The notes: generated by a model not told the origin, from the letters alone. A DNA stretch of 62,389 nt from Candidatus Poribacteria bacterium (GCA_009839975.1 VXOP01000361.1:1-62389), one strand, 5' to 3'; positions 12,178 through 33,156 are shown, counted from the stretch's first letter. A program made the numbers and translations.

Positions 12178-12321
12178 GAAAAAATAAGTTATGTTTGAAG
12201 TATAAAATTAAACTTATTTAATTTTCCTACTACACCATAAATATTCTAAACTGATCTTTTCTTTTAGGGTTGCTTTTATATTGGTAGGTATGCTATACTT
12301 ATCGGAGTGTGTTTTAAGAGT

Positions 12322-12369
12322 TTTAAATAAAAAATGGGGGTTGTTGAAAACAACACCCCCCACACTGAT
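12322..12369 (-). ncRNA. Predicted countertranscript RNA, copy B
   Basis: Minus-strand TTGACA (12399-12404), 17-nt spacer, TATCCT (12376-12381). Hairpin at 12336-12361, followed on the minus strand by ATTTTTTATTT. Confidence 0.45.
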
Positions 12370-12552
12370 AAAAGTAGGATACCACAAAATTTTGGATATG
12401 TCAAGTAAAAAATGCATTTTTTTACGAATCCCTGTATTTTCCGATAGTGTTTGGTGCGATAGGGAAATCGCACCTACCGACTGGGTTAGGTCAAGGGGTT
12501 GCATAGCAAAAGCGTGTGTGTATTCTATTTTTTTTATTATAGGAGAAGAAAG

Positions 12553-13665
12553 ATGGTGCTAAATCCATCCTTGCGTTTAGGCATTTTGAATGCTGTTCCT
12601 GTTTCGTGTCATAATTTAGAGGCTCCTGAGTTAGTTGAGTCGACTGAATACAACATACCTCACCCAACTGTAGATACCACGATGCAGTTGCCATTTGGTT
12701 TTAGTAGTGCGTTATCGGAGTTGTTGTCTGGTGAGATGCGTTCTATTGATTTTTTATTATTGTGTGTATTTAATTATCGTAGCACTTATGAGAATGGTAA
12801 GACGTGGCGGACAGGCTTGCGTCTGCTTTCTGAACTTACCGATGTATCAGTTCGTTATATCCGCCAAAGATTATCCGATTTGAAGGACAAGGGTTGGTTG
12901 CATGTTTTGTCAGTTGGTATAAATACGGGTAGTCGTTATCAAATAGTGCATCACAATTGTGATCGTGATGACGTTCCGACAGATAAAAATGGTAATCCGT
13001 TGAAGTTTGCGATACCTCGTGGTGTTGGCGGTATTCTTGAAAGGTTGTTTTCTGGTGATATAAGTTGGAAGTCTGCGGTTGTATGGATAGTCATGAAGTA
13101 TCGCAGTGATTGGCAGACGGGCATAACGAATTCGTTGAGTATTGACAAGATACGCAAGTGGGTAGGTATGAGTCCGCAGACGGTCGTTAATTGTATAAAA
13201 GAACTCACGAAAGCGGGTTTAGTTAAGCGTTTGTCCAAGAAGCACGAGGCGGGTGTATATCAGTTGTATCCGAAACCTGATGGGAAACCGAAGCCTGTTT
13301 TCCGCAAGCGGAAGGTTAAGAAGGTTCGGACACCTGAAGATAAGGAGATGCGTGCGGATGGTGATTGGCGTTATAGCTTCAACGAGTTATGGAGAGTCAA
13401 TGTTGAAACGAATCAGATTCAACGTAGAAAGTCGCGGCGTTTTGGTATATGGCGTAATACATCGGAGCATGAGCGCTACACACAGATGCCGAAGTCTATG
13501 CGGGATGCTTTTGAAAAAGCTTATGAGTATTACCATCAAATTAAACGGGAATTAGGTGTTACCGATAGCGCACATAGCGTTACCCATACCGCACAGGACG
13601 TTACCCATACCGCACAGCAGGTTTTGGATGGTGTGGTTGGAGGCAATGGTAGTAAGGATTCGTAA
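12553..13665 (+). CDS. Rep-like protein with two winged-helix/HTH modules (candidate replication initiator)
   Basis: AGGAG RBS before the ATG at 12553. Two wHTH-like segments (LSELTDVSVRYIRQRLSDLKDKGWL and IRKWVGMSPQTVVNCIKELTKAGLV). Paralog at 55765..56847 next to parA. Confidence 0.6.
   Translation: MVLNPSLRLGILNAVPVSCHNLEAPELVESTEYNIPHPTVDTTMQLPFGFSSALSELLSGEMRSIDFLLLCVFNYRSTYENGKTWRTGLRLLSELTDVSVRYIRQRLSDLKDKGWLHVLSVGINTGSRYQIVHHNCDRDDVPTDKNGNPLKFAIPRGVGGILERLFSGDISWKSAVVWIVMKYRSDWQTGITNSLSIDKIRKWVGMSPQTVVNCIKELTKAGLVKRLSKKHEAGVYQLYPKPDGKPKPVFRKRKVKKVRTPEDKEMRADGDWRYSFNELWRVNVETNQIQRRKSRRFGIWRNTSEHERYTQMPKSMRDAFEKAYEYYHQIKRELGVTDSAHSVTHTAQDVTHTAQQVLDGVVGGNGSKDS
13558..13620 (+). repeat. 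Three tandem 21-bp iteron-like repeats inside the 3' end of the rep-like gene
   Basis: GTTACCGATAGCGCACATAGC / GTTACCCATACCGCACAGGAC / GTTACCCATACCGCACAGCAG. Confidence 0.8.
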
Positions 13666-13830
13666 ACAACCCAATTTCGCGTAACGCGCAGCTAGTTCAA
13701 AATTAATTAGGACCCAAGACGCGGACAACTTCAATTTTTTGTTTTTTTTGGATCAGCATCAGCGTTTTGGGGTTTGGTAACGGGTTCAAAAAACAACACT
13801 TAAGGGAAAGAGTCAGGTTTTTTTTTAATT

Positions 13831-13855
13831 TAGACTGATATTCTGTATCGGTCTA
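13831..13855 (+). other. 25-bp imperfect palindrome, candidate recombinase (lox-like) site 1
   Basis: TAGACTGATA-TTCTG-TATCGGTCTA within an ~80-bp block (TTAAGGGAAAGA...CGTCCT) conserved in three places. Confidence 0.45.
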
Positions 13856-13994
13856 TCTGCGTTGCAGCGTCCTGTCATCAGGACGGACGCATTCCCTTGC
13901 TTGGGGTGGATTAAGGGGTGTGGTATGTCAATACCTACTAACGATGTTACTGATTGTAAATGTCAAATTCTCTAAATTGTCTAATCTGTTAATT

Positions 13995-14303
13995 TTAGAA
14001 CCATCCGAACGGGGAGCGGCGGCTCTTCCAGATTAAAGTAACTTTCGTGCGTCTAATGCCTCGCTTGTCTGTCATATCACGCATCCTTATATCGTGCAAA
14101 CGCCCATAAAAACTGATACGCTCTGCTGATCGTATTGCACGAAAAAAAACATAATGCATCCCCGATGTCGCTTTCTCACCTGCCCGCATCCATCGCCACA
14201 TTGTCGTGCGATTTACGCCTACTTCTTTGGCTATATCCGACCATTGCCTACCTTTTTGTCTTAAATTCGCTATCTCAATTATTTTACTTTTTGTTAATTT
14301 CAT
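13995..14303 (-). CDS. HTH DNA-binding protein (phage small-terminase/transposase-HTH-like)
   Basis: IANLRQKGRQWSDIAKEVGVNRTTMWRWMR. Confidence 0.5.
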   Translation of the reverse strand: MKLTKSKIIEIANLRQKGRQWSDIAKEVGVNRTTMWRWMRAGEKATSGMHYVFFRAIRSAERISFYGRLHDIRMRDMTDKRGIRRTKVTLIWKSRRSPFGWF

Positions 14304-14654
14304 GTTCCTGATATCCCTTCAACCAAAATACTGCTTTTAATATGATGTTTTTGTTGCTTTTTTGACAGAAGAAATCAGACGTGTTCTGATATTTCCCCCC
14401 CCAAAAAAGCACTCACTTTTGTTGCTTTTTCCTGTTACTCTATGTTACGATTCAAAACCTCTCTATTTGTCATTGATGTTCTCCTTCCACTTTCACACCA
14501 TAAACATTGTTTGAATTTTAAAATTTTGAATGCACACAATCGCTTGTAACGCATTCTTCTTGACTAATTGCTATACCTTCCTCAAGGTATACTGTGAATT
14601 TCACGGTTTATTGAATTATCACTTGCTGGCACGACTTTCGGACGCCTGATCTCC

Positions 14655-16154
14655 TTACAGCAAAACACCTTGATTTTTGAGTTTTGCAATAAGTTGTTCT
14701 TGTGTGCCTGCTCCTTTTGTAGAGTTGCAAGCACCACACAACAACTGCAGATTGTCTATATCATCCGTTCCATCTGCTGATCGCGGGACGATATGGTCAA
14801 TTGTTAGGTTGCGTATCGGTAGCAAGTATTGACACCCGTTGCATTTGCCCTCTTGGATACCATATAACGTGTGCTTGTAGGATACAAAGACTTGCATTTC
14901 CGCCTCAGACAACACAATATCCGATTTTCTTATCCTATTTTTCTCTGCTTGTATCCACTCCTTGCTAAACAAGCCGCTTAACGTTAAACGTTTCTCTTTT
15001 GGCGTGTCAGTGCGTTCTGGCACATCCGTTCTGTGATTTATTTTACCAACAAGATGTCTCAACAATGGCATCTCTTTTTCTATACGCGATTTGACTAATT
15101 CAACAGCCTTTGGCGATAAATCAATACCTATCCACTTCCTATTTAGATTTTCCGCGGCAAGACACGTCGTAGCACACCCACAAAACGGATCCAAGACGAC
15201 ATCCCCGGCGTTGCTACTCGCTTTGATAATCCGATCAAGCAAAGATAACGGCTTCTGGGTAGGATAGCCTGTTCTCTCTTTTCCTGCTGCTATAGGTATA
15301 TCAATCCATAAACTTCCTATGGGTTTACCTTTATAATTATCTGCATAGGATTTTCTTAATGGACGTTTTCCTTCACGCCATATAATATCTCCTGCTTTAT
15401 CCATTTTAATTAATTTTTCTTTACTGACTCGCCATCCTGATGAATGTGGGTTTGAAATTCCTTTATATTCATAACATAAATTAGGTCTGTCTCCCATTGA
15501 CGGTTGACGAAATAAAGGGGTTGTTGTGTTATATTTTCTGCCATTTGTATCAGTATATGGAAATTTCTCATTTATTTCTAACTCTGATAGTGGTTGGGTA
15601 ACTAAGTTATGTAATAGATTATTGGATTTTGAATAGTGAAAAATGTTATCTGTGTCTTTGCCCAGTGATTTACTTTTATATTGACTACCTTTTGCCCTTC
15701 CTGATGCCCTTTGCCACACAATCTCGTTCCTGAAGTTATCCTGCCCGAACACCGAGTCCATCATCATTTTCAGATAATGACTCGCTGTTGGATCGCAATG
15801 CAGGTAGATACTGCCTTTCGGAGACAGGATACGGTGCATCTCTAACATACGAATTGACATCATGATGAGATATGCTTTCATCGCTTTACCGTGTGCTAAT
15901 TCCGCAGCGACGATGCATTGATAGAGTGATGGGTAATCCTCCGCTATCTGCCCGTGCCAGGCATTATCCACGTCATCTAGTGTCCACGAGTCTTTGAATG
16001 CTGCCCCTGCTGCCTCACTGCCTATCGGTGCAGAATAACTTTTATTACTATTGAAAGGTGGATCCAGATATATCAAGTCAATTGAATCTGAATTGATACC
16101 TTTGAGAACTTCTATATTGTCGCGTTCAAAGATGGTTCTGTTTTGAACATTCAT
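14655..16154 (-). CDS. Beta-class N4/N6 DNA methyltransferase fused to a C-terminal HNH endonuclease domain (paralog 1)
   Basis: AAGGAG RBS before the ATG at 16154. Motif IV DPPF precedes motif I (DPFCGCATT). C-terminal CNGC...IDHIVPRS..G.DDIDNLQLLCGACN. Confidence 0.8.
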   Translation of the reverse strand: MNVQNRTIFERDNIEVLKGINSDSIDLIYLDPPFNSNKSYSAPIGSEAAGAAFKDSWTLDDVDNAWHGQIAEDYPSLYQCIVAAELAHGKAMKAYLIMMSIRMLEMHRILSPKGSIYLHCDPTASHYLKMMMDSVFGQDNFRNEIVWQRASGRAKGSQYKSKSLGKDTDNIFHYSKSNNLLHNLVTQPLSELEINEKFPYTDTNGRKYNTTTPLFRQPSMGDRPNLCYEYKGISNPHSSGWRVSKEKLIKMDKAGDIIWREGKRPLRKSYADNYKGKPIGSLWIDIPIAAGKERTGYPTQKPLSLLDRIIKASSNAGDVVLDPFCGCATTCLAAENLNRKWIGIDLSPKAVELVKSRIEKEMPLLRHLVGKINHRTDVPERTDTPKEKRLTLSGLFSKEWIQAEKNRIRKSDIVLSEAEMQVFVSYKHTLYGIQEGKCNGCQYLLPIRNLTIDHIVPRSADGTDDIDNLQLLCGACNSTKGAGTQEQLIAKLKNQGVLL

Positions 16155-16254
16155 CACAAGACTCCTTTTGTCCATTTTACAGTTAATATTCTCTCTATAC
16201 ACATGTGCAGATATTTTGATTTTAGCATAACACCCGTTCAATTTCTACTACTGC

Positions 16255-16465
16255 GGAACATCGGTAACAACGGTAACAAGCATGCCATGAACCCTTACTG
16301 TTATCGCTTGTGCCACTTTCACTGTTGGTGGTAACAACGGTGGAACAACGGTAACATTTGTTCCGTTGTGCTTTTTGGTGGCACATTCAGTCGTGGTATA
16401 TGTTTATAGCGTTAATGTTACCGTTGTTACCGCACCTCCCATTACAAACCGATTTGGTAAACGGG
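16255..16465. repeat. Cluster of short GGTAACA/ACGGT repeats (iteron-like, candidate origin or operator)
   Basis: GGAACATCGGTAACAACGGTAACA (16255-16278), GGTAACAACGGTGGAACAACGGTAACA (16329-16355), inverted TGTTACCGTTGTTACCG (16416-16432), TTTGGTAAACGGG (16453-16465). Confidence 0.6.
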
Positions 16466-16467
16466 CA

Positions 16468-17892
16468 TTACAGGCTAATATCGTAATTATCATCTTTCGG
16501 ATAGTAAGGTCCGCGTTTTCTCGGCTGATGGATTTCTCCGTTCTCTACCATTTTGCGAAGTGTCTTTCTAATTAGACTATCCGAGACAGTGCCGCCTTTT
16601 CCGTCAGAGATTTCAATTTCTGATGGTGTCAGTCCATCTTTTGCGTCGTTAAGCAGGTCTATAATGTTGTTTCGCAGTTCTGACTGGTGGAACGTCTTTG
16701 CGTCTCCTTGTAGTTCCCATAAACCTATTGACGGATCAATTGTGAAAGACAATTCGCGTGTTGATATACGTTTGCCAGTTAAGTGTAAGGTTTTGGATCC
16801 TGAATCGTGCTGTAGCATCATCAGAGTATCCGCGGCTGCTTGAATCCCCGTTGACCCTTGTAGTTGATTAAAAGCATTGTCGGTATCAACTGCTTTGCGA
16901 GTATGCGTTATTAGGATAATGCACATATTTCTGCGGTTTGCGAGATTCTGAATTGGAATGACGACGTCGTAGTCGGTATCGTATGCTGTGCCTCTGGCAT
17001 TGCTTAACTGCGGTTTGACGCGATGCAACGTATCAATAATCAAAAGTTCTGTTTCTGTTTTGTCAAGATGAGTTTCAAGTAGTTTTATGCCTGCATTGTC
17101 CAAGACGAGAGTCTGGGTGTTGTCTATGATATGTAAGTTTGATAAGTCATGACTATTTTCTGTCAGTAAATCAATTCTGCCAAGTAAGAGATCCGGTGGG
17201 TCGTCAAAACATAGATATGTGACGTTGCGGGGTTCGTCCAGTTCTATTTTAGAAAAGACGGCTGCTCTGCTTGCAATCGCAACTGCGATATTTGTAGCAA
17301 AGAAGCTTTTACCAATTTTTGCGGGGCCGCCAAGAATTGCCAATCCTTCAGGTAGCATATCAGGTATGAACCATTTTACAGGCGGAACAATGCGGTCTTT
17401 CGCATCTGCATGTGTAAATGAATTGAGTTGCTTTGATGTAGATGTTTGGATATTCTCACCAACCTCAAGTATTTGCGACTGAATATATGCAATTTCAACG
17501 CTTTCATTGTATGCTAATTTTGTTATTTCGTTGGATATACTGATTATCGCCCTTCGTGTTGCGTAATCCTTAAGTATTCTCGCGTATACTACGGTGTTTT
17601 CAGTTTCAACAATCGGTGCCTGCAAGTCGTAAAGATAGTCAGGACCTCCAACACGATTAAGTTGTTCATTTATTTTCAAGTCATGTGCTACCAATATAGG
17701 GGTAACTCTTTCGTGTTTCTCAAATACTTTCAAGATGGTTGCATAAATCAGTTTGTGATCGGTTGTGAAAAATGCATCGGCAGAATTGCCTAACAAATCC
17801 TCAACGGCGGGTATTACTAATGGATTTATCATCATCGCGCCAAGCACTGCCTTTTCAGCATCGGCATCTTGCAAAAGTTTAATATCGTACAT
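16468..17892 (-). CDS. DnaB-N-terminal-domain / RecA-like AAA helicase (RepA/plasmid-phage replicative helicase type) with C-terminal wHTH
   Basis: GGAGG RBS before the ATG at 17892. DnaB-N-like AEKAVLGAMM...HKLIY. Walker A GGPAKIGKS. Walker B LLIIDTLH. Confidence 0.75.
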   Translation of the reverse strand: MYDIKLLQDADAEKAVLGAMMINPLVIPAVEDLLGNSADAFFTTDHKLIYATILKVFEKHERVTPILVAHDLKINEQLNRVGGPDYLYDLQAPIVETENTVVYARILKDYATRRAIISISNEITKLAYNESVEIAYIQSQILEVGENIQTSTSKQLNSFTHADAKDRIVPPVKWFIPDMLPEGLAILGGPAKIGKSFFATNIAVAIASRAAVFSKIELDEPRNVTYLCFDDPPDLLLGRIDLLTENSHDLSNLHIIDNTQTLVLDNAGIKLLETHLDKTETELLIIDTLHRVKPQLSNARGTAYDTDYDVVIPIQNLANRRNMCIILITHTRKAVDTDNAFNQLQGSTGIQAAADTLMMLQHDSGSKTLHLTGKRISTRELSFTIDPSIGLWELQGDAKTFHQSELRNNIIDLLNDAKDGLTPSEIEISDGKGGTVSDSLIRKTLRKMVENGEIHQPRKRGPYYPKDDNYDISL

Positions 17893-18135
17893 GTTTATCT
17901 CCTCCTTTTTTGAGTAAGGAGGCAACTGATGAGGGTATCAGCGACCTCGCTGGCTTTTGCAACCTCGCAATTCTCTTTTAGGGCCGCTTTGCCATTGAGG
18001 TAGGGATTCCTACCTCTCAGGGCATGCGCGGCGAGCCATACGAGGTTTTAATAGCGCGTGCGCTTTAGAAAAGGATTGGTAGTCCTTACGCACAGAACAA
18101 CTCCACAGCTGCTCCGCTATCATTATAACACTAAT

Positions 18136-18188
18136 AGTATAAATGAAAATAGTTGTAAATTCAAGCAAAAAATGCTAAAATTACAACT
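18136..18188. promoter_or_regulatory. Divergent overlapping promoters with an inverted-repeat operator
   Basis: Minus strand: TTGAAT (18159-18164), 17-nt spacer, TATACT (18136-18141). Plus strand: TTGTAA (18153-18158), 17-nt spacer, TAAAAT (18176-18181). Inverted repeat AGTTGTAA (18151-18158) / TTACAACT (18181-18188). Confidence 0.5.
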
Positions 18189-18213
18189 TAAATTATGGAC
18201 ATAGGGAAATTCC

Positions 18214-18576
18214 ATGAAAAAGAAAAAAAATGAAATCCTCGCTTATCTTTTTCAAGAAATAGAATGTCGCGGAAGAACGCAAACCGACGTTGCAGATGAA
18301 TTGGGATACAGTCAACAATATATCTCCAAATATATCCAAGACCACCAGGACAGATGGAACCGTCTACTAAAGGACACAGAACGCGAGATATCACTTTACA
18401 AGGCTCTGATTGAAGCAGTTAAGAGTACACCTGTTGTCGTAAACGGTGGAATAGATGCATACGTTGAGAGAATAGAAAGTGCAATTGATGCTGCCATCCA
18501 GGAACATAAACGCAAATATCCTCCGAAGCAGCTGCTTATCCCTGTTGTTTTTAATGTCATGAAAAAACCCAAGTAG
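18214..18576 (+). CDS. XRE/Cro-like HTH regulator
   Basis: RTQTDVADELGYSQQYISKYI. Confidence 0.6.
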   Translation: MKKKKNEILAYLFQEIECRGRTQTDVADELGYSQQYISKYIQDHQDRWNRLLKDTEREISLYKALIEAVKSTPVVVNGGIDAYVERIESAIDAAIQEHKRKYPPKQLLIPVVFNVMKKPK

Positions 18577-18630
18577 CCCTCCATCTTCTTACAGACAATT
18601 AAGGGAAAGATTTTGATTTTTTCTCTTGTT

Positions 18631-18655
18631 TAGACTGATATTTTATATCGGTCTA
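18631..18655 (+). other. Candidate lox-like site 2 (same orientation as site 1)
   Basis: TAGACTGATA-TTTTA-TATCGGTCTA with the same conserved flanks. Confidence 0.45.
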
Positions 18656-18836
18656 TTTGTATTGCATCGTCCTATAGTTCAGAGGCACGGATGTTTTATC
18701 TTTGTTTTTCTACAGCAGGGATTGCAGGGACTGATGTAACCACCACCCGATAGTCAACGATTATCAGAAAGTTGACAAAATGTGTCCATATTCTGCTAAA
18801 ATACGAACACCTTAAAATGTCAAGGAGACTTAAGAA

Positions 18837-19232
18837 ATGAAACACACAGATAGAACCGACACAGAAGCAGAGAACGAAGTTCGCGAAGCACGAGACGTGA
18901 CCGTGCATCTTCTCAATGCTGCAGTCATGCCACATCCAGGTTTCTACGATATGCAAGAGATTGACTCGACAGCGTTTGCCGAGTTGGTGCAGGAAGCGAA
19001 TGAATTGGGACAGCTGAAGCACTATATCGGATATGAATCAACTCTTGCCTTTGTCCAACATCTAACAGCAATAGACTTGGGGGGCAGGAACATGAATAAA
19101 ACGGAAATGAAGGATGGGGACTCGTTCCTTGTGATCCGACTTGTTTACCGTCCCACACAAGAGCAGAGAAGAACCGACAATCCGCAGCTTGAAGATTTTG
19201 AATTCTTTAAGGGCATCTACTCAAAAGCATAA
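18837..19232 (+). CDS. DUF1874 / STIV-B116-like small protein
   Basis: LLNAAVMP..G.Y....I....F..L......LKHYIGYESTLAFVQHL....L..RNMNKTEMKDGDSFLVIRL matches my memory of the family pattern. Not verified. Confidence 0.4.
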   Translation: MKHTDRTDTEAENEVREARDVTVHLLNAAVMPHPGFYDMQEIDSTAFAELVQEANELGQLKHYIGYESTLAFVQHLTAIDLGGRNMNKTEMKDGDSFLVIRLVYRPTQEQRRTDNPQLEDFEFFKGIYSKA

Positions 19233-19267
19233 AGGAAAAAATTGTCTCATTATTCCGTTCAGGTCTT

Positions 19268-19675
19268 TTAGGTCCTGTTGTGTATGCGGCGATGGCACCC
19301 TGAACAGAGTGCTGTAAGATCAGTGATTTTTTCGTTGAAAATACGTTTATATGTCTCGTGATGCACTTCTGTTGCTGTCGCACCACACTTTCTACATCTA
19401 TAACCTGCCATCTTCAATACTTTTCGCCTTTTCGCTTTCCATTTTTTAGAATTCAGATATACCCGGTAGTTGTCTCTCTTCAAATCCCATAGAATAGATC
19501 TCAACTCTTTTGATACATCACGATCACTCTTTTCAGATGATTTTGAAACTGACTTCGTAGATTTATCCGGCTCTCTTACCTGTCCAAGTTCAGATAAAAA
19601 TCTGTTGATCGCCTTAAGGTTCTTTCGGGAAAGAAGGGATGGTAGTATCTTAAAGAAGTTCATCTGTTTTTCCAA
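19268..19675 (-). CDS. HNH endonuclease-domain protein
   Basis: C-terminal CRKCGATATEVHHETY....LTALCSGCHRRIH. Confidence 0.65.
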   Translation of the reverse strand: MEKQMNFFKILPSLLSRKNLKAINRFLSELGQVREPDKSTKSVSKSSEKSDRDVSKELRSILWDLKRDNYRVYLNSKKWKAKRRKVLKMAGYRCRKCGATATEVHHETYKRIFNEKITDLTALCSGCHRRIHNRT

Positions 19676-19810
19676 TAATGTGATATAATAGTATCCCCGA
19701 TTATACCAAAAAACTGCGTTTAAGGAAACGCATATACAATCATATCTTCTATAGAGGGTAGGACATACAGAAATTTATAGAAATTAGCGGAATTTCGTAT
19801 GAAATTTAAA

Positions 19811-20728: not shown

Positions 20729-20835
20729 CTTGCGCCTATTGGATAATAACTCATGATTTACACAAAAATCAATACCTAAATATAATACAGAATACCACAA
20801 ATCAACGGAAAATGCCCACCTACATTCTTTTCCGC

Positions 20836-22101: not shown

Positions 22102-22261
22102 CGGTTCATACCTCAAAGTAAAACATTGTGTAACGCGTCTTTTTTCATTATATCACAAATGGACAAGTTGAAGTAAAGCTGAATGATTTTTACCATCCAA
22201 CTTTTTCCCGGTACCACATTCTATCCTCCTTGAGTATATATGCGTTATTTTATTAATCATC

Positions 22262-22293
22262 ATATAATATGTATACATATTATATTTTACAAG
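22262..22293. repeat. 24-bp perfect palindrome plus TATATTTTACAA motif (centromere/operator-like)
   Basis: ATATAATATGTA|TACATATTATAT (22262-22285). It shares the core ATATGTATACATAT and the adjacent TATATTTTACAA with the parA upstream region (57194-57282). Confidence 0.55.
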
Positions 22294-22305
22294 TAAAATT
22301 AAAAC

Positions 22306-22335
22306 TTGACATTAATTGCATTTAGAATGTATAAT
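22306..22335 (+). promoter_or_regulatory. Strong sigma-70-type promoter (TTGACA-18-TATAAT)
   Basis: TTGACA 22306-22311, TATAAT 22330-22335. It faces the adhesin gene about 870 nt downstream. Confidence 0.55.
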
Positions 22336-22562
22336 ATGCTTGTCAGTTGAAATTTTGAAGAAAAAGGTTGATTAACAGACGCTACTATGTCCTTTAGAAT
22401 TCAGTCATAGATATTTTTTTCAGAGTTGGAACAATGGAAAACCGACAAAGAAACCGTCATTTTGTCCAAATATACGTGCCAGATGCCTATTGTTTGTGCG
22501 GAGATTGGGTTGGTGCCCTGGTGGCCTCGCTTGATGCTTCTGTTTTAACATCGGTTTTGAGT

Positions 22563-22573
22563 CCCCCCCCCCC
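22563..22573. repeat. Homopolymeric C11 tract
   Basis: Eleven consecutive C residues in the long untranslated region upstream of the adhesin gene. Confidence 0.9.
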
Positions 22574-22968: not shown

Positions 22969-23201
22969 CATTTGTTCTTCTTATACCCTATTATCATGTC
23001 GGTTTCGCAAGTTCTACCCGACCTACAATTACAGTGAAATTCAGAAGTATATGCACAATTTCGGTCCAATGGATATAAACCATTATACTGAAAGGTTTAA
23101 TAATGTCTATTTATGTGTTTTGATTTTTGATGTGTTATCAAGAATCTGAAGTACAATCTTGTCCTGATATAAAACTGAGCAAATACTCAGGAGGTATTGA
23201 A

Positions 23202-26200: not shown

Positions 26201-29200
26201 ACAATATTTCCACATCATATCTACTACAGGACAACTTCAAACAAAATCACCACTTGATTATGAAACAAAATCTTTATATACATTTGATGTAAACGTATAT
26301 GATAATCACGGTTTGAGTGATACCATTAGTGTTGATATTGAAATAAGTGATATTGATGAAAATACTGCACCTGAATTTATAGAAGGTGAAACCGTAAGTA
26401 GATATATAGCAGAAAATTCTAATGCCGGTATAGATATCGGGTCTCCAATTACAGCTCGTGACAGTGAACAAGACTCACTTGTCTATACCATCCAAGGCAC
26501 AGATGCAAATACATTTGATATTATTAGCACGACTGGTCAATTAAAAACAAAAGATTCTTTGGACTATGAATTTAAGAATTCTTATTCAGTCCAAGTCATT
26601 GTATCTGACGGTAAACTCACTGATACAATAACGGTTACAATATATATTAATGATGTTTTTGAGATTGTAGATATAGAACCTGATATACCCGAAACTACGC
26701 AACCTGATATACCCGAAACTACGCAACCTGATACATCCGAAAACACGCAACCTGATACACCCGAAAACACGCAACCTGATACATCCGAAAACACGCAACC
26801 TGATATACCTGAAACTATAGAACCACAAACACCTCAAAATAACGCACCATATTTTATTAGTGGTATTCCTACATCACGTTCTATAAATGAAAATGTTCCG
26901 ATAGGCACAAACATTGGCAACCCTATAACCGCTAAAGATGATGACGATGGTGACAAATTGACGTATAGTTTGATAAATTCAAGTGCTGCCCCTTTTGAAA
27001 TTGACGCTACATCAGGCCAAATTAAAACAAGCACAAATGTAGATCATGAAAACAAGAATTCATATACTATAACAGTTCAAGTTTCTGATAGTAAACTGAC
27101 AGATACTATAGCAATCACTATTAATATAATAGACGTAAACGAAGCACCTGTTTTCAATGCTGGTAATACTGCAACACGTTCAGTGTTAGCAAATACCGAT
27201 AGTATTACTAATATTGGAAGCGCATTTTCAGTATCGGATGACGATGGAGATGCACTCACATGGACATTAAGTGGTACAGATGCAAGTTCATTTAGTATTG
27301 ATGATAAAGGTCAACTGAAGACTAAAGATAATATCGATTATAGTTTAAAACAATCCTATGCTATAACAATCACAGTATCTGATGGCACCTTAACTGATAC
27401 GATTAAGGTTACGATAAACACTATAGATACAAATGAAGCACCTGTTTTTGCATCTGATACTACTACCCTTGAAATTGCTGAAAATACAGCATCAGGGGTT
27501 AACATAGGAAGCCCTATCACAGCAACGGATGCAGATAATGATACACTTACATATACACTCAGCGGAACAGATGCAGCCGCATTCAGTATTCAAAGCACAT
27601 CTGGACAAATAAAGACTAAAGAATCAACAGATCATGAGACGAAAGATACTTATGAAGTCATAATCACCGCATCAGATGGGAACAAATCAGACACTATCAC
27701 TGTTACCATTGAAATAAAAGATGTCAATGAAGCACCCGTTTTCACAGACAGTAGTGATATTACGCGTGAAGTAAATGAAAATACAGCACCCAATGAAGAT
27801 ATTGGTGATTCTATAGATATATCCGCAACAGATCCTGATGATGGTGATACACTGACGTGGACACTTGGAGGAACAGATGCAGCATCTTTTAATTCCGAAA
27901 TAGATTCTGATTCAGATACACTGCAATTAAAAACTGTATCGGCTCTTGATTATGAAACTAAAAATAGTTATTCATTGAAAATTATTGTATCAGATAGTGA
28001 TGGCTTAGAAGATGATATTTCTGTAACGATAAACATAAATGATGTATACGAAGCACCACCTAATAGCGCTCCTGTATTTACAGATGGTGCTAATACTGAA
28101 CGATCAATCGCTGAAAATACAGCATCAGGGGTTAACATAGGAAGCCCTATCACAGCAACTGATGCAAATAATGATACACTTACATGGACACTCAGAGGAA
28201 CAGATGCAGCCGCATTCAGTATTCAAAGCACATCTGGACAAATAAAAACAAAAGCAGCATTGGATTTTGAAACCAAAACTACATATACTATAATTGTTAA
28301 TGTTAGTGATGAAAAGGGTGGAACTGATAGTATTACTGTCACTATCAAAATTACCGATGTCAATGAAAATCCAGGATTTTTAGAAGAAAGTGTTACATAT
28401 TCTCTAAATGAAAATACGGCATCAGGTAAAAATATAGGTAAACCATCTGTGAACAATCCTAATAAGGATAACTTGATTTTTGAACTTAAGGGTGATGGAT
28501 CTAATGCTTTTGATATTGTTTCTAACACAGGTCAATTACGAACTAAAGATATATTCAATTACGAATCAGATCCTACAAGCTATTCTTTTCAAATTGACTG
28601 TAAATTAGGTGAAAATACTATTGATACAATTGATATTACTGTAAATATTAGAGATATCAATGAACCTCCAAAATTTAATATTAATGCTAAAGGTCTATCA
28701 AAAGAGTTTACTATTAGTGAAAAATTATTGTTCCCGACTATTAGTAACACTATTGCCATAATAGATGCTACAGATGAGGATGCTATAGATAATGAAGAAT
28801 ATACAAGACATAATATGCGTTATTCTAACAGATTGAAATATAAGATTGCAAGTAGCAATAGCAATCTTTTTACAATTGAACAAAGCACCATTACCTTTAC
28901 AGGAATAAACGTGTCAAAGACTGGTGGCCAGTTATATTTATATTACTCATCAGATGAAGAAAAATATGATACTGAAAAAACATACAAACTTAAAATTATT
29001 GTAGAAGATAGCAAGTTAGCAAGAGATTCTATTGATATTACAGTAAAAGTGAAAAAAAATAGTCCGCCATCATTTGTGGATGGTGATTCTACCACACGCG
29101 AAGTAAGCGCAACTGCAAATCTAGGTACTTTTGTAGGCGAACCTATATCTGCAACAGATCCTGATGGAGATAAACTTGAATATAAATTTGTTTATTTAAT

Positions 29201-29717
29201 TCCTGGAACTCAACATGAAGGTTTAGCTCCCAATATTCATAACTTTACAATAAACTCTGAAACAGGACAAATATCACTTGTAACAAATAAAGTTCTTCAA
29301 AGCTATGTAGTTACAGTTAATGTAACAGATGGAAAAGCGCGTGATAGAATTGACGTTACAATTAATCCTATTAGTTCATCTAATGCACCTTCTAATAATA
29401 TAGAACCGTTTAGACTTATTCCTACATCAACAGAATTATTACCGAATTATCCGAATCCGTTTAATCCTGAAACTTGGATACCGTATCAATTATCAGAAAG
29501 TTCTCATGTAGAATTAACTATATATGATATTAAAGGGGCTATCATAAGACATATAGATATTGGTCATAAAATGCCAGGCACTTATATAGATAAAATAAAT
29601 GCTATTCATTGGGATGGCTCTAATAATCGAGGTGAAAGAATTTCATCGGGAATTTATTTCTATACACTGAAGGCAGGTAAATATACTAAATCAAGGTCTT
29701 TATTGATATTGAAATAA
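23202..29717 (+). CDS. Giant (2,171 aa) surface adhesin: three LRR modules, about 14 cadherin repeats, a Pro/Thr-rich tandem linker and a T9SS/FlgD-Ig-like C-terminal sorting domain
   Basis: AGGAGG RBS before the ATG at 23202. N-terminal TM/signal sequence. LRR units (L..L.L..N.L..LP..IF.GL). Repeated cadherin signatures (NAPVF...I.EN...G..IG..I.A.D.D.D.LTY.L.G.DA..F.ID..SGQI.T...LD.E......I.V.D). C-terminal LLPNYPNPFNPETWIPY...GIYFY. Confidence 0.85.
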   Translation: MIIANMFRWKYTLISISAVFILYIIHFSNIAYSIPVSERTEQVQEEIKRALDIDEVSQITDAHLARITALNLKNKDIHSLKSGDFEGLSGLKNLNLFGNNLDVLPNSIFSGLKSLTVLRLGGNNTYPLQTPIKLEKISDGEFRAVVITAAPFDIELDINIVNGTTKNSKITVNKGSTYSSILNVERIYGTTDIVTAEIKVLPQLPKFHYGYIFVKSNRSPINVIDKVEVIIDKTPDDNVVDEVIEEDEVQDDSLDNQEPEIETSEVQNDITNNPPYFGTNNIFVRYIEENVIAGINVGMPITAIDQDPNDTLIYSLDGLDQESFSIDSKSGQILTKLPLDYESKNLYIVRVVVSDYKDKNWVYVVIKLIDKNDGRTNFVEDFLDINERTPAVQDAIISAIPNIDNAENITVDHLESITELNLRGAGITQLKSGDFSGLHGLTNLNLYGNMLRRLPEDIFNGLISLKSLRLGRNIFDPLPILVSFQKIEFDKYQVVIPTGAPFDINMLVNNNTSIDTVRIKKGDTRSNVFTSKGIPKIEQLPTLPRNHFGYTISQSTVCHRSEQVIKGITNSLGQPDCRLISDLDLLLIRDLDLSGMSIESLKSFDFSGLLMLNHIDLSNNKLSKLPEGIFDKLTRIQSLNLHNNRFDPLPITFLLEKVGKDQIKITIPVCAPSEMNIPVSVKVGEIVSNKFIVQISTGNYESDLYTITRPDDTLDYIYVDIVDPIDIPNTHSGYTFIGNTNTPLEIFERINVAPVFVEGEKTNRNIAENTDSGENIGIPITATDINNDKLNYTITGQDAQSFSIDNSNGQIITKSPLDYETKSEYSIIVNVSDGILTTSIIVAIKIDDVYENIYPVFVEGENTTRNIAENTDIGIGINAIKATDANENDTLEYTLSGTDASRFKIDSASGQLITNSQLDFETKSSYSIIVHASDNNGGTDSITVKIIVNDVNEAPVFISDLSTRITIDENITTRTNIGKFTATDEDKDDILKWTITGEEAQYFHIISTTGQLQTKSPLDYETKSLYTFDVNVYDNHGLSDTISVDIEISDIDENTAPEFIEGETVSRYIAENSNAGIDIGSPITARDSEQDSLVYTIQGTDANTFDIISTTGQLKTKDSLDYEFKNSYSVQVIVSDGKLTDTITVTIYINDVFEIVDIEPDIPETTQPDIPETTQPDTSENTQPDTPENTQPDTSENTQPDIPETIEPQTPQNNAPYFISGIPTSRSINENVPIGTNIGNPITAKDDDDGDKLTYSLINSSAAPFEIDATSGQIKTSTNVDHENKNSYTITVQVSDSKLTDTIAITINIIDVNEAPVFNAGNTATRSVLANTDSITNIGSAFSVSDDDGDALTWTLSGTDASSFSIDDKGQLKTKDNIDYSLKQSYAITITVSDGTLTDTIKVTINTIDTNEAPVFASDTTTLEIAENTASGVNIGSPITATDADNDTLTYTLSGTDAAAFSIQSTSGQIKTKESTDHETKDTYEVIITASDGNKSDTITVTIEIKDVNEAPVFTDSSDITREVNENTAPNEDIGDSIDISATDPDDGDTLTWTLGGTDAASFNSEIDSDSDTLQLKTVSALDYETKNSYSLKIIVSDSDGLEDDISVTININDVYEAPPNSAPVFTDGANTERSIAENTASGVNIGSPITATDANNDTLTWTLRGTDAAAFSIQSTSGQIKTKAALDFETKTTYTIIVNVSDEKGGTDSITVTIKITDVNENPGFLEESVTYSLNENTASGKNIGKPSVNNPNKDNLIFELKGDGSNAFDIVSNTGQLRTKDIFNYESDPTSYSFQIDCKLGENTIDTIDITVNIRDINEPPKFNINAKGLSKEFTISEKLLFPTISNTIAIIDATDEDAIDNEEYTRHNMRYSNRLKYKIASSNSNLFTIEQSTITFTGINVSKTGGQLYLYYSSDEEKYDTEKTYKLKIIVEDSKLARDSIDITVKVKKNSPPSFVDGDSTTREVSATANLGTFVGEPISATDPDGDKLEYKFVYLIPGTQHEGLAPNIHNFTINSETGQISLVTNKVLQSYVVTVNVTDGKARDRIDVTINPISSSNAPSNNIEPFRLIPTSTELLPNYPNPFNPETWIPYQLSESSHVELTIYDIKGAIIRHIDIGHKMPGTYIDKINAIHWDGSNNRGERISSGIYFYTLKAGKYTKSRSLLILK
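26679..26822 (+). repeat. Six tandem 24-bp repeats inside the adhesin gene (PDIPETTQ/PDTSENTQ units)
   Basis: CCTGATATACCCGAAACTACGCAA-type unit repeated six times in frame. Confidence 0.95.
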
Positions 29718-29730
29718 GTGTTAATAGTGT

Positions 29731-29756
29731 AGGCAGCATACCTGCGTATGCTGCCT
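29731..29756. terminator. Hairpin between convergent adhesin and STAS genes (possible bidirectional terminator)
   Basis: AGGCAGCATA-CCTGCG-TATGCTGCCT, a perfect 10-bp stem with a weak U-tract. Confidence 0.5.
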
Positions 29757-29854
29757 CAAACTATTCTTCAAAGTTATCAAGGATCAAATTATCAATGGCA
29801 TCTCACATGCATCTATACGATTTTCGTCTGACATTATATCTGACCAGACCCCGC

Positions 29855-30196
29855 CTATTTACGCTTCAGTCCATATATTGCTGCAGCTTCGGTATTGAAA
29901 TGTTCAAACATATTGATGAGCCGACTGCGGACGATCAGGTTTTTGATATTTTTCCCAACATGAATAATGGCAATCCGTCCATTTTTTGAGCGTGCCAGTT
30001 TGTAGGCACTCATGAGCGTGCCTAGTCCGCCACTATCCATTTTCTGCACGCGCTGAAAATCAATAAGAATAAGAGGTTTGTTCGCAGTATCTATCTGTTT
30101 TGTCATGACAGTTCGCATGTCCCGCACGGCTGTTCCTATAATGTTTCCAGTCGGTTGTAGGATAGCGATGTTGCCTTTTTTTCGTAGTGTTACCAT
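29855..30196 (-). CDS. STAS-domain protein (SpoIIAA/RsbV-like anti-sigma-factor antagonist)
   Basis: 113 aa. ...ILIDFQRVQKMDSGGLGTLM... matches the STAS DS.GLG region. Paralog at 41601..41945. Confidence 0.75.
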   Translation of the reverse strand: MVTLRKKGNIAILQPTGNIIGTAVRDMRTVMTKQIDTANKPLILIDFQRVQKMDSGGLGTLMSAYKLARSKNGRIAIIHVGKNIKNLIVRSRLINMFEHFNTEAAAIYGLKRK

Positions 30197-30272
30197 GTGT
30201 TCACCTCATATAAAGGGTTGATTGTTTGACAGAAACGCATATCGCTTATGTATCATGTATATTAGACAAGAC

Positions 30273-30360
30273 AAAATATCTTTAGCTTTTTTTCACGGGT
30301 AAAAAAAGTGTGTATCTGATAAAATATATGAACGTTTCTAAAAAAGAACTAAAGATTTTT
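30273..30360. promoter_or_regulatory. Conserved inverted-repeat operator in the STAS/sigma divergent intergenic region (pair 1)
   Basis: AAAATATCTTTAG (30273-30285) and CTAAAGATTTTT (30349-30360) flank a CTTTTTTT-CACGGG-TAAAAAAAG hairpin. Same layout as 41496-41553. Confidence 0.45.
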
Positions 30361-30443
30361 CTATAAAACACATATATTAAATATAGACAGTTTGTTTCAT
30401 ATGAACCGAACTGCAGATTCTAAGTCGTGTACGGGAGGTATAT

Positions 30444-31100
30444 ATGAATTGTCCAAGTGGTGGTCCCAGCCAACGCGGTAAATGTCCGTTTTATATTGTC
30501 CCGGATGATCCGCTCTCTGCGGATGCGTCTGTGAAACATTGTGTAGATGCTATAACAGCGAAAAATGATAGGTTACAAGGACTGAAAGAAGATTTTTATC
30601 AGATAGCGTATCTGGCACTATTAGAGGCTTTACCAGAATATAATCCATCTCATCCGAGTGGTGCAAGTCTGATTACGTTTGTGAAATCACGTGTCTGCAC
30701 GCGTCTCTGGCATGAACGTTCCAAAGCGTTATCACATATTCCATTTCCCACAGAGCCTTCTGATTGTTCCGGTTGCACAGGTGTGTGTTGTAGAAACCCG
30801 TTAGTTGCGGAGCTCACGCGTCAAGCGTGTTCACAAGAATCTATGGAAGACGAAGTTATTCGTCGACTTGAAGCGGAAAATCTCCGCAGATACTATCCAT
30901 TGCTGACTCGCAGGTTAAGCGAGAAAGAAAAAAGTATTCTGCAGCTAAAGTTTTTTGAAGAAAAAAGCGGTGTAGAGATTTCCAAGACACTGGGGGTCTC
31001 CGAGGGGCGTGTGAGTCAACTGACACAAACTGCCCTGGAAAAAGTCGGTAAAGCGTATTTTCTGCTATCGTTTGCTAAGAATCGCAACCCCTATATTTAG
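30444..31100 (+). CDS. Sigma-70-family RNA polymerase sigma factor with an unusual N-terminal GKCPFY motif
   Basis: Region 2-like YQIAYLALLEALPEYNP...FVKSRV. Region 4 HTH: LSEKEKSILQLKFFEEKSGVEISKTLGVSEGRVSQL. Paralog at 40782..41435. Confidence 0.75.
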   Translation: MNCPSGGPSQRGKCPFYIVPDDPLSADASVKHCVDAITAKNDRLQGLKEDFYQIAYLALLEALPEYNPSHPSGASLITFVKSRVCTRLWHERSKALSHIPFPTEPSDCSGCTGVCCRNPLVAELTRQACSQESMEDEVIRRLEAENLRRYYPLLTRRLSEKEKSILQLKFFEEKSGVEISKTLGVSEGRVSQLTQTALEKVGKAYFLLSFAKNRNPYI

Positions 31101-31133
31101 GCGCAGGCGGTGTGCCTAACTACGCAACGAACA

Positions 31134-31158
31134 TAGACCGATATAAAATATCAGTCTA
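31134..31158 (-). other. Candidate lox-like site 3 (inverted relative to sites 1 and 2)
   Basis: The reverse complement reads TAGACTGATA-TTTTA-TATCGGTCTA with the same flanks. Confidence 0.45.
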
Positions 31159-31325
31159 AATCAGAGAAAAAAATCTGACTCTTTTCCTTAAGTGTTGTCC
31201 TTTTAAACCGTTACCGCAACCGTTGTGGTTGTCCTGAACAGAAAAGAATCAAAAAATGCAAATCGTCCGCGTCTTGGGTCCTAATTAATTTTGAATTAGC
31301 TGCGCGTTACGCGAAATCGGGTTGT

Positions 31326-32438
31326 TTACGAACCCTTACTACCATTGCCTCCAACCTCCCTCTCCAAAACATCGTGCGCGGTATGGGTAACGCCCTGTGC
31401 GGTATGGGTAACGCTGTGTGTGCTATCGGTAACACCTAATTCCCGTTTAATTTGATGGTAATACTCATAAGCTTTTTCAAAAGCATCCCGCATAGACTTC
31501 GGCATCTGTGTGTAGCGCTCATGCTCCGATGTATTACGCCATATACCAAAACGCCGCGACTTTCTACGTTGAATCTGATTCGTTTCAACATTGACTCTCC
31601 ATAACTCGTTGAAGCTATAACGCCAATCACCATCCGCACGCATCTCCTTATCTTCAGGTGTCCGAACCTTCTTAACCTTCCGCTTGCGGAAAACAGGCTT
31701 CGGTTTCCCATCAGGTTTCGGATACAACTGATATACACCCGCCTCGTGCTTCTTGGACAAACGCTTAACTAAACCCGCTTTCGTGAGTTCTTTTATACAA
31801 TTAACGACCGTCTGCGGACTCATACCTACCCACTTGCGTATCTTGTCAATACTCAACGAATTCGTTATGCCCGTCTGCCAATCACTGCGATACTTCATGA
31901 CTATCCATACAACCGCAGACTTCCAACTTATATCACCAGAAAACAACCTTTCAAGAATACCGCCAACACCACGAGGTATCGCAAACTTCAACGGATTACC
32001 ATTTTTATCTGTCGGAACTTCGTCACGATCACAATTGTGATGCACAACCTCGTATATGCTACCCGTATTAATACCAACAGATAAAACAAATAACCAACCC
32101 TTGTCCTTCAAATCGGATAGCCGCTCGCGGATATAACGAACAGATACATCGGTAAGTTCAGAAAGCAGACGCAAACCCGTCCGCCACGTCTTACCCGTAT
32201 CATAAGTGCTACGATAATTAAATACACACAGCAATAAAAAATCAATAGAACACATCTCACCAGACAACAACTCCGATAACGCACTACTAAAACCATAAGG
32301 CAACTGCATCGTCGTCTCTACAGTTGGGTGAGGTATGTTGTATTCAGTCGACTCAACTAACTCAGGAGCCTCTAAATTATGACACGAAACAGGAACAGCA
32401 TTCAAAATGCCTAAACGCAAGGATGGATTTAGCACCAT
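31326..32438 (-). CDS. Rep-like double winged-helix protein (second complete copy)
   Basis: By my count it differs at 19 positions from the 12499..13665 translation. Confidence 0.6.
   Translation of the reverse strand: MVLNPSLRLGILNAVPVSCHNLEAPELVESTEYNIPHPTVETTMQLPYGFSSALSELLSGEMCSIDFLLLCVFNYRSTYDTGKTWRTGLRLLSELTDVSVRYIRERLSDLKDKGWLFVLSVGINTGSIYEVVHHNCDRDEVPTDKNGNPLKFAIPRGVGGILERLFSGDISWKSAVVWIVMKYRSDWQTGITNSLSIDKIRKWVGMSPQTVVNCIKELTKAGLVKRLSKKHEAGVYQLYPKPDGKPKPVFRKRKVKKVRTPEDKEMRADGDWRYSFNELWRVNVETNQIQRRKSRRFGIWRNTSEHERYTQMPKSMRDAFEKAYEYYHQIKRELGVTDSTHSVTHTAQGVTHTAHDVLEREVGGNGSKGS
31371..31433 (-). repeat. Three tandem 21-bp iteron-like repeats (copy C)
   Basis: Reverse complement of the GTTACC(C/G)ATA(C/G)CGCACA units. 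Confidence 0.8.
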
Positions 32439-32621
32439 CTTTCTTCTCCTATAATAAAAAAAATAGAATACACACACGCTTTTGCTATGCAACCCCTTGA
32501 CCTAACCCAGTCGGTAGGTGCGATTTCCCTATCGCACCAAACACTATCGGAAAATACAGGGATTCGTAAAAAAATGCATTTTTTACTTGACATATCCAAA
32601 ATTTTGTGGTATCCTACTTTT

Positions 32622-32666
32622 ATCAGTGTGGGGGTGTTGTGAAAGCAACCCCCCTTTCAATTTTTA
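32622..32666 (+). ncRNA. Predicted countertranscript RNA, copy C
   Basis: TTGACA (32587-32592), 17-nt spacer, TATCCT (32610-32615). Hairpin GGGGGTGTTG..CAACCCCCC (32630-32654), then TTTCAATTTTT. Confidence 0.45.
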
Positions 32667-32721
32667 AAACTATTAACACTCATTCCGATTAGTATACCAT
32701 ACCTGCCAATACAAATGCAAC

Positions 32722-32763
32722 CAAAAAATAAATAGGCAGATAACCGATAACGATTACCTGCCT
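32722..32763 (-). terminator. Rho-independent terminator (member of a recurring GGCAGGTAATCG..CGGTTATCTGCC hairpin family)
   Basis: The minus strand reads AGGCAGGTAATCG-TTAT-CGGTTATCTGCCT followed by ATTTATTTTTT. Related hairpins at 8684-8712 and 44008-44037. Confidence 0.7.
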
Positions 32764-32784
32764 ATTTTGAACGGCACAGAGTTT

Positions 32785-33156
32785 CTACTGCTTTATCGCC
32801 CCCACGTTACTTTTTTTACCAACTGGGGATACAGACAGCACATCATCGCTTATCCAATCTAAACCAACATAGTTTATGTTTAGCAAATCGGAAAAGCCAG
32901 AATTATTTGTCAACTGTGTGATATTTCTACTTTTTATATCATACTTATAGATATTAGTCGGTGGTTGTGTATGACTAAATCGAACGTTCAGTTCCACCTC
33001 ATGTGCACTGAAAACGACAGACTCACCGTTATCCATCCAGTCAAGACCGTGGGCATGTAAGTTTTTGGGTATCTGCAACTTTCGGGTATTCTCGTCTTGC
33101 ATTCTGAATCGCGGATTATATGGATTTATCAGATTACACGGATTTTTTTCTCTCAT
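32785..33156 (-). pseudogene. Beta-propeller (PD40/TolB-like) protein fragment with a repeat-derived N-terminus
   Basis: YKYDIKSRNITQLTNN looks like a PD40 repeat. The first ~20 codons (NPCNLINPYNPRF) are encoded by a REP-like element. A separate short RBS-preceded ORF lies upstream. Confidence 0.4.
33103..33144 (-). repeat. REP-like dispersed repeat (AATCCG...GCGATTCAGA family)
   Basis: The minus strand reads AATCCGTGTAATCTGATAAATCCATATAATCCGCGATTCAGA. Related copies at 48544-48578 and 50429-50464. Confidence 0.7.

Follow-up and report, generated by a model that had tools for sequence, protein, structure and literature searches.

Inverted modules of an undescribed Rep family appear to evolve in concert on a putative cointegrate plasmid of Candidatus Poribacteria

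INTRODUCTION

Long inverted repeats are found in plastid genomes and in the yeast 2-micron plasmid, in which recombination between the repeats yields two isomers and the copies evolve in concert. Several replication modules can also be united on one molecule, as in the IncF plasmids, which are multi-replicon cointegrates (FIA/FIB/FII mosaics). In Halobacterium, pNRC100 and pNRC200 carry inverted repeats of 33-39 kb that catalyse inversion isomers (PMC1447603). Here we describe a locus on a 62,389-nt contig from a Candidatus Poribacteria bacterium (GCA_009839975.1, VXOP01000361.1:1-62389; this whole stretch is hereafter called the window), in which two inward-facing copies of a 1.6-kb module, arms A and B, each hold an intact gene for a 370-aa candidate replication initiator (Rep) on either side of a 17.3-kb segment. 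The window is probably a large multi-replicon cointegrate plasmid, or an island derived from one, whose inverted rep modules recombine homologously.

Like pNRC100, the plastid genomes, and the 2-micron plasmid, the window has long inverted repeats (1.6 kb, 17.3 kb apart) that appear to evolve in concert. Unlike those repeats, its arms are short (1.6 kb) and hold one replication module each, they are diverged alleles identical over only 318 + 597 nt rather than near-identical duplicates, and the second isomer is suggested by a single assembled contig and not by mapping. With respect to the 2-micron plasmid in particular, no dedicated FLP-type system was seen to act on the arms. As in the IncF mosaics, several modules of one family occur together with truncated remnants, which fits repeated fusion and decay; in contrast to them, the two modules share an iteron core and face each other, and the Rep family is absent from Pfam, NCBIfam, PLSDB, and INPHARED.

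Rep resembles the initiators of iteron plasmids (RepA of pPS10, RepE of F, and pi of R6K; Rep_3) in having two winged-helix domains and about three repeats of 21-23 nt in or beside its gene, and, as in theta plasmids of the iteron type, a partition ATPase is encoded nearby in larger poribacterial replicons. It differs from Rep_3-type initiators in having no significant sequence match to those families, and the repeats lie at the 3' end of the gene rather than upstream. Finally, a Cre-like recombinase and three palindromic sites at the ends of homology recall the Cre/lox and Xer/dif plasmid modules, from which the window differs in that the inner-end spacers are not identical and no assembly contains a site rearrangement.

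RESULTS AND DISCUSSION

The inverted arms are a mosaic of identical and diverged blocks

An earlier, sequence-only reading of the window had described two inward-facing inverted repeats of 1.6 kb that were almost identical. Self-comparison did find one dominant inverted pair, with an ungapped core at 12357-13749 / 31242-32634 (96%), and gapped self-BLAST aligned arm A (12258-13865, plus strand) with arm B (32732-31124, minus strand) at 93.4% identity over 1612 columns with 7 gaps (E = 0). Near-identity is confined to two tracts: in arm A coordinates, 0/318 positions differ between A and B at 12357-12674 and 0/597 at 12973-13569, whereas the remaining blocks are 12-26% different (25/98 positions at 12258-12356, 35/298 at 12675-12972, and 51/296 at 13570-13865). 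The identical antisense open reading frames (ORFs) that the same reading saw in both arms are indeed present; they are located within the 597-nt tract. The right-hand limit that it gave, 32796, lies ~64 nt past the A/B homology; the ~65 nt beyond this boundary are common to copy B and a truncated third copy only. That third copy, placed earlier at 8652-9095, was confirmed at 8649-9097. Its part at 8895-9097 is 95.6% identical to copy A (12517-12719), and its part at 8649-8871 is 82.7% identical to the copy B side (32799-32579).

Both rep genes are intact 370-aa ORFs, and their products differ at 19 amino acids. In the coding divergent block (12675-12972), we obtained a dS of 0.43 and a dN/dS of 0.14; judged from these values, arms A and B are old alleles under purifying selection and no recent duplication.

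The arrangement recurs in contigs that the same sponge-metagenome study obtained from further samples and in an NCBI Poribacteria metagenome-assembled genome (MAG). More specifically, contig L016 (22.6 kb) runs from one flank of copy A through to the other, and L010, L011, and L048 do the same for copy B. These contigs come from other samples and assemblers and are ~99.9% identical to the window, and all four arm-flank junctions are thereby reproduced in independent assemblies from at least three other samples.

Strain variants are shared by both arms

We compared three strain haplotypes, namely, the window, ERZ23491722 (L016 for copy A and L011 for copy B), and VXXJ01/ERZ23491828 (L010 for copy B; L018 and L022 for the A type). 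Within each of them, the 318-nt and 597-nt tracts contain 0 A/B differences. Between them, these tracts vary at 11 clustered sites (13377-13477) and at single-nucleotide polymorphisms (SNPs) at positions 12534 and 13237, and every such variant occurs in both copies of its strain. The divergent blocks display no variation between strains. Since strain-specific SNPs are always found in both copies, the comparison points to concerted evolution of the arms through gene conversion between the inverted copies.

One contig joins the arms differently. L018 (ERZ23491828, 8.6 kb) starts in the inner-left flank, with a methyltransferase (MTase)-HNH gene and the gene for a 102-aa helix-turn-helix (HTH) protein, and then passes through A-type blocks 3 and 2. 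It continues through the 318-nt tract into B-type block 1 and the outer-right flank, with VWA and TPR genes and a recombinase pseudogene. Its crossover falls within the 318-nt tract (12357-12674), and a reciprocal crossover in this interval would yield an inverted isomer with exactly this junction. The window and five contigs that span the junction are in the other orientation, as are all B-type Rep contigs in the 90% cluster of Rep proteins. The 318-nt tract is thus resolved in opposite ways in what is apparently one strain, which reflects either the presence of both isomers in the reads or an assembler error. Because the arm copies exchange sequence, we lean towards the view that the 17.3-kb segment flips between two isomers. 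A large invertible segment was among the three options raised by the sequence-only reading; the L018 junction and the concerted evolution of the copies speak in its favor, a single short-read contig being no proof.

A lineage-specific Rep family with repeats at the 3' end of the gene

Each arm was found to contain an intact 370-aa ORF, a promoter-like site, and a structured leader, in agreement with the earlier description of a complete gene with its control region. The rep leader is ~250 nt long. The stem of its hairpin does not have the same sequence in A and B, with pairing kept, and a minus-strand promoter-like site (TTGACA-17-TATCCT at 12404 to 12376) lies 15 nt upstream of the hairpin; together, the two may produce a short countertranscript for copy control, predicted to measure ~45 nt and to run antisense to the leader. 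T-rich runs and a palindrome complete each arm.

The Rep protein contains only generic HTH domains according to Pfam and NCBIfam and belongs to no curated Rep family (Rep_3, RepA_N, RPA, IncFII RepA, and others). Its PHROG matches, to replication-initiation O-like and DnaD-like proteins, are weak (E ~6e-8) and cover the second winged-helix region only, and tblastn uncovered no relatives among PLSDB plasmids or INPHARED phages. The Rep profile matches winged-helix-turn-helix (wHTH) proteins at positions 88-120 and 179-229, and the AlphaFold model (predicted local distance difference test score, 76.5) consists of two helix-strand wHTH units. In a fold search, RepE, pi, and RepA did not rank above winged-helix proteins of a generic kind, and Rep is not placeable in the RepE/pi/RepA fold family. 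The designation "rep-like" given to these genes at the outset is therefore backed by genomic context and by iteron-like repeats and not by membership in a curated family.

Those repeats are a constant companion of the gene: direct repeats of 21 nt in 2.5-3.1 copies occur at or after the 3' end of rep in 15/15 homologous loci checked (L002, L004, L005, L008, L033-L038, L040-L042, L044, and L045), with units that vary by clade. In the window's clade, they lie within the last codons of rep (unit GTTACCGATACCGCACAG), and in a second clade another unit, TGAATTCCTGTGAGTTGTCAC, is found ~190 nt downstream of the rep stop. Period, copy number, and position are kept while the sequence changes, which is a signature of iterons, and we consider it likely that the 3'-end repeats are iterons defining a new replicon family. 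The iteron cores are the same in arms A and B, so the two modules probably share replication specificity. Collectively, each arm looks like a whole minimal replicon that comprises a promoter-like site, a structured leader, an initiator candidate, and three putative iterons.

A database search returned 50 Rep homologs, none of them named and all of them metagenomic. In a scan of species-representative genomes, the family was confined to Candidatus Poribacteria MAGs, and a scan of JGI metagenomes with the Rep profile yielded two short contigs only, without context. The rep gene is carried on units of 4149 bp and 4768 bp that were assembled as tandem multimers in long-read assemblies, including one 13.1-kb contig named circular, as well as two "contig_2" records, one of 5.5 kb and one of 21 kb, from MAGs that are complete in other respects ("contig_2" accessions, CBDCAV010000002 and CBDCAZ010000002); one tandem set forms the end of a 157-kb linear contig. 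On these 4.1-4.8 kb units, Rep is the sole protein with a recognisable DNA-binding domain, and the other small proteins have no replication domain. In addition, a 66%-identical homolog lies beside a STAS/sigma pair on a 54.9-kb contig (54,869 bp; ERZ25069580 ctg100995_87x_c) that is named circular at 87x, and contigs with Rep, beta-CASP, 91-aa, and ParA genes have ~3x the coverage of other contigs of the same MAG (130x vs 46x and 248x vs 80-87x, in two MAGs). Truncated Rep genes reside in Poribacteria chromosomes of 6.4 and 5.9 Mb. Within 10-kb flanks, relatives showed no second inverted Rep pair, only tandem direct multimers. The best reading of these comparisons is that the family represents an undescribed, lineage-specific replication-initiator candidate. 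As for the small Rep units (L005-L007, ERZ25069580, ERZ25072196; L033, L034), there are 3-5 tandem copies per long-read contig, which are true multimers, integrations, or a concatemer assembly effect.

The window as a probable cointegrate plasmid

Several other components of the window are signs of a cointegrate, i.e., the truncated rep copy, a decayed recombinase, a duplicated repeat (X), a second STAS/sigma pair, and a third Rep paralog, RepC. The block formed by RepC, ParA, a 91-aa protein, and a beta-CASP nuclease is syntenic with high-coverage contigs of other Poribacteria MAGs (L036, L037, and L042). The second STAS/sigma pair (40782-41945) consists, like the first (29855-31100), of divergent genes for a STAS anti-sigma-antagonist and a member of the sigma-70 family, the pairs being 32% and 47% identical, and the region at 39.6-46 kb is 86-91% identical to part of the 54.9-kb contig named circular. 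The tRNA and Rfam scans of the window revealed no tRNA, rRNA, or Rfam RNA, and no obvious housekeeping gene was seen in the 62 kb.

On this basis, the following course of events can be proposed. A plasmid would have absorbed several replication modules of one lineage-specific family, and the arms would stem from different plasmids brought together head-to-head. Since the 318-nt and 597-nt identical tracts are inverted on one molecule, host homologous recombination would act on the arms: gene conversion, to which the strain comparison points, holds the tracts identical and spreads strain SNPs to both copies, and reciprocal crossovers, as suggested by L018, would flip the 17.3-kb segment between two isomers. 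Rep and its putative iterons would drive replication. The sequence-only reading had suggested an integrated or fused plasmid dimer. Fusion stands, in the form of a multi-replicon cointegrate with an extra Rep paralog and a truncated rep, whereas a dimer of one plasmid does not agree with diverged alleles (dS 0.43). A simple Campbell-type fusion gives direct, not inverted, repeats.

Several observations weigh against this interpretation. Neither Pfam nor NCBIfam contains a curated Rep family to which the protein can be assigned, and a search of the PDB with the Rep model gave generic tandem winged-helix proteins only, with low template modeling scores. The window has no terminal overlap that would support circularity, and the cointegrate model does not itself account for the head-to-head arrangement. 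The conversion evidence comes from short-read assemblies, in which bubble-popping in collapsed repeats could mimic shared single SNPs, although this is less likely for the 11-site cluster. The flipped isomer is represented by L018 alone, a short-read contig in which the 318-nt tract could be mis-resolved. At the L018 junction, L010 (NCBI MAG, apparently the same strain, with private SNPs 12534G and 13237G) has the window orientation, and the reciprocal flipped junction was not found in any member of the Rep 90% cluster.

Because truncated Rep genes occur in Poribacteria chromosomes (6.4 and 5.9 Mb), the main alternative is a chromosomal island in which two plasmids integrated independently and left the arms behind, and in which recombination would behave in the same way. 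Such an origin would also be in keeping with the tandem small Rep plasmid copies at the end of the 157-kb linear contig, with the binning of the window, which is not circularised, with a MAG, and with its BCCT transporter and porin-like gene. Nevertheless, we regard it as unlikely in view of the lack of housekeeping, tRNA, and rRNA genes in 62 kb, the intact RepC-ParA-beta-CASP core resembling high-coverage contigs in other MAGs, and the similarity of 39.6-46 kb to the 54.9-kb contig named circular.

Palindromic sites and the Cre-like recombinase

As the sequence-only reading had noticed, a lox-like palindrome lies at each inner end of the arms, and pattern searches added a third copy within the cargo. 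These are the only three occurrences in 62 kb, with 0 matches expected from shuffles. The palindrome has 9-nt arms around a 7-nt spacer (ATTCTGT at site A vs ATTTTAT at site B) and belongs to a conserved element of ~65 nt (13796-13873; cargo copy, 18595-18673) that marks the ends of homology between the copies. This element folds as two hairpins with G-U wobble, and its three copies are oriented alike with respect to the gene upstream of them. Its position at the end of homology would suit a recombination site, and its fold and polarity would suit a transcript 3' structure. In related loci, the palindrome was detected only in contigs of the same element. Two direct copies of the element bracket 4.8 kb with the HTH, MTase-HNH, DnaB-like helicase, and HTH_3 genes, an interval of approximately the size of a small Rep plasmid; a deletion variant of it was not seen in six contigs.

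The tyrosine recombinase at 19811-20800 has Cre as its nearest solved relative (E = 6e-10). It is encoded within the segment, and the sites have 9-nt arms and 7-nt spacers, number three in 62 kb, and coincide with homology ends, all of which would fit a site-specific inversion in which the recombinase flips the cargo at the inverted inner-end palindromes. Such an inversion could turn expression of the adhesin or of the sigma module on and off, in the manner of lox, hix, and shufflon systems. We find this scenario quite doubtful. Differing spacers normally block strand exchange by tyrosine recombinases (Cre, XerCD), and those of sites A and B are not identical. Moreover, the L018 crossover is ~1.2-1.5 kb away, in the rep leader, with A-type sequence retained up to the palindrome; every contig crossing 13.8, 18.6, or 31.1 kb is colinear with the window; and G-T wobble and uniform polarity also fit a transcript 3'-end structure. 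A Cre/lox-type inversion is accordingly not supported, given that the spacers differ and the sole recombinant crosses in 12357-12674 and not in 13830-13856. It is very unlikely that the arms, the lox-like sites, and the recombinase constitute a dedicated 2-micron-like switch, either for fork reversal that amplifies copy number or for a programmed flip of the adhesin and STAS/sigma genes that serves as a phase switch in a sponge symbiont. If this were true, bacteria would possess an equivalent of FLP-mediated amplification that is assembled from whole origins.

The third option of the sequence-only reading was a composite transposon or novel mobile element with whole rep genes as terminal inverted repeats, whose 17-kb cargo moves as a unit. 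Only the geometry, inverted 1.6-kb arms around accessory genes, favors this idea, and we judge it highly improbable. Pfam and PHROG searches of the arms revealed no transposase or DDE domain, only HTH and replication-initiator-like matches. A target-site duplication is missing, as comparison of the 20-nt outer flanks gave no common direct repeat of 4 nt or longer. The outer ends have no sharp boundary, the homology between copy B and the truncated copy reaching ~65 nt past the point where copy A stops, and divergence between the arms amounts to 12-26% in the unconverted blocks. We saw neither an empty site nor another insertion site in the 50 related loci, and the contigs of the same element all have the same flanks. 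An assembly artefact, i.e., a chimeric join or a collapsed or duplicated repeat, is effectively refuted, since, even though most short-read contigs break at the arms, L016, L010, L011, and L048 span the four junctions at 99.9% and the 111 fixed A/B differences are stable across strains.

Cargo and other regions of the window

The features of the window are listed in Table 1. The cargo had been said to comprise a helicase, two MTase-HNH fusions, an HNH protein, a recombinase, an adhesin, a STAS/sigma pair, and iteron-like repeats; all were found there except the last, which sit inside the arms, no convincing iteron array being present within the cargo. The two MTase-HNH paralogs are 42% identical and combine an N6/N4 DNA methyltransferase with a C-terminal HNH nuclease. 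The adhesin gene (33% GC vs ~42% in the rest of the contig) looks like foreign cargo, judged by its sequence, and contains a coding repeat of 24 nt x 5.8 at 26677-26814. Upstream of it, a 1-kb intergenic region of 34% GC holds a C11 homopolymer (22563-22573), at which three independent short-read contigs (L016, L011, and L017) all end, two of them in artificial poly-C/G; either sequencing drops out at this tract or the tract is phase-variable through strand slippage. The contig breaks at ~22560 were considered as a junction and rejected, as they are caused by the homopolymer.

Outside the arms, repeat X and its counterpart X' (38189-38059) are 80% identical over ~125 nt, and the promoter in X faces a gene for a 264-aa coiled-coil protein. 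Homology to the 54.9-kb circular-named relative (L004) ends precisely where X begins (12103). Despite this, X was rejected as a recombination site, being better explained as a duplicated strong promoter. The decayed recombinase adjoins X'. STAS/sigma pairs are linked to Rep genes in relatives (L001, L002, and L004), including the 54.9-kb contig, and the backbone of this plasmid apparently includes control by sigma factors. The second pair lies within ~4.8 kb flanked by a 282-nt direct repeat (39710-39990 / 44542-44823, 89.7% identical). Further downstream, 48602-55348 encodes a 1198-aa Eco57I/MmeI-like type IIG restriction-modification protein (50531-54127) between FRG-domain TPR and WD40-repeat proteins.

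Table 1. Coordinates of predicted features in the window
Feature	Coordinates	Strand	Basis or remark
Truncated third rep-module copy (upstream control region and first 56 codons)	8649-9097	+	Self-BLAST; direct orientation to arm A
Repeat X	12101-12223		Abuts arm A outside; perfect sigma-70 consensus TTGACA-17-TATAAT (minus, 12177 to 12149)
Arm A, complete rep module	12258-13865	+	Self-comparison
Promoter-like site (TTGCTT, 18 nt, TG-n-TATACT)	12270-12299	+	By eye; below threshold of scan tool; kept in all three copies
rep-leader hairpin, then T run on minus strand (terminator-like)	12336-12361	-	Fold; counterpart in arm B at ~32630-32654
repA, 370 aa, two winged-helix domains	12553-13665	+	ORF, domain, profile, and model searches
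Putative iterons/origin of arm A, three 21-nt direct repeats, core GTTACCCATACCGCA	13558-13617	+	Repeat search
Palindrome TTAGACTGATATTNTRTATCGGTCTAT, inner end of arm A (TAGACTGAT-ATTCTGT-ATCGGTCTA)	13830-13856	+	Pattern search
Segment between the arms, 17.3 kb	13866-31123		
HTH protein, 102 aa	13995-14303	-	
MTase-HNH fusion	14655-16241	-	
DnaB-like helicase	16468-17925	-	
HTH_3 protein	18214-18576	+	
Third palindrome copy, inside cargo	18630-18656	+	Pattern search; 27-nt core identical to that of copy B
B116-like protein	18837-19232	+	
HNH, small separate protein	19268-19675	-	
Cre-like tyrosine recombinase	19811-20800	-	
MTase-HNH fusion	20836-22116	-	
Cadherin/LRR adhesin, 2196 aa, 33% GC	23127-29717	+	
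STAS protein	29855-30196	-	
Sigma factor	30444-31100	+	
Arm B	31124-32732	-	Holds palindrome, iterons, repB, and leader hairpin (~32630-32654)
Palindrome, inner end of arm B	31133-31159	-	Pattern search
repB, 370 aa	31326-32438	-	ORF, alignment to repA
Putative iterons of arm B	31373-31433	-	Repeat search
Decayed second tyrosine recombinase, three ORF fragments	36799-37805	+	76-80% nt identity to 19821-20731
Repeat X'	38059-38189		Inverted relative to X
Putative plasmid core	55765-62328	+	
RepC, distant Rep paralog	55765-56847	+	32% identical to RepA
RepC repeats, 23 nt x 2.3	56902-56953		Repeat search; 55 nt past repC stop
ParA	57294-57938	+	
91-aa partner	57925-58200	+	
Beta-CASP nuclease	60790-62328	+	

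Significance for the replicons of Candidatus Poribacteria

For general plasmid biology, the mechanism is ordinary, i.e., homologous recombination between inverted paralogous replicons; what is new is the Rep/iteron family in an unexplored lineage. In the literature searched, we found no description of Candidatus Poribacteria plasmids. The locus and its relatives would define a phylum-specific replicon family with members as small as 4-kb plasmids and as large as 55-62 kb, the larger of which carry eukaryote-like adhesins, TPR/WD40/VWA proteins, restriction-modification genes, and sigma/anti-sigma-antagonist pairs. The locus appears to offer a clean natural example of concerted evolution in inverted replication modules, together with a candidate for a flipping 17-kb segment. 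Its use is in annotating the mobile DNA of sponge symbionts, and a vector backbone for this uncultivated phylum might one day be derived from it.

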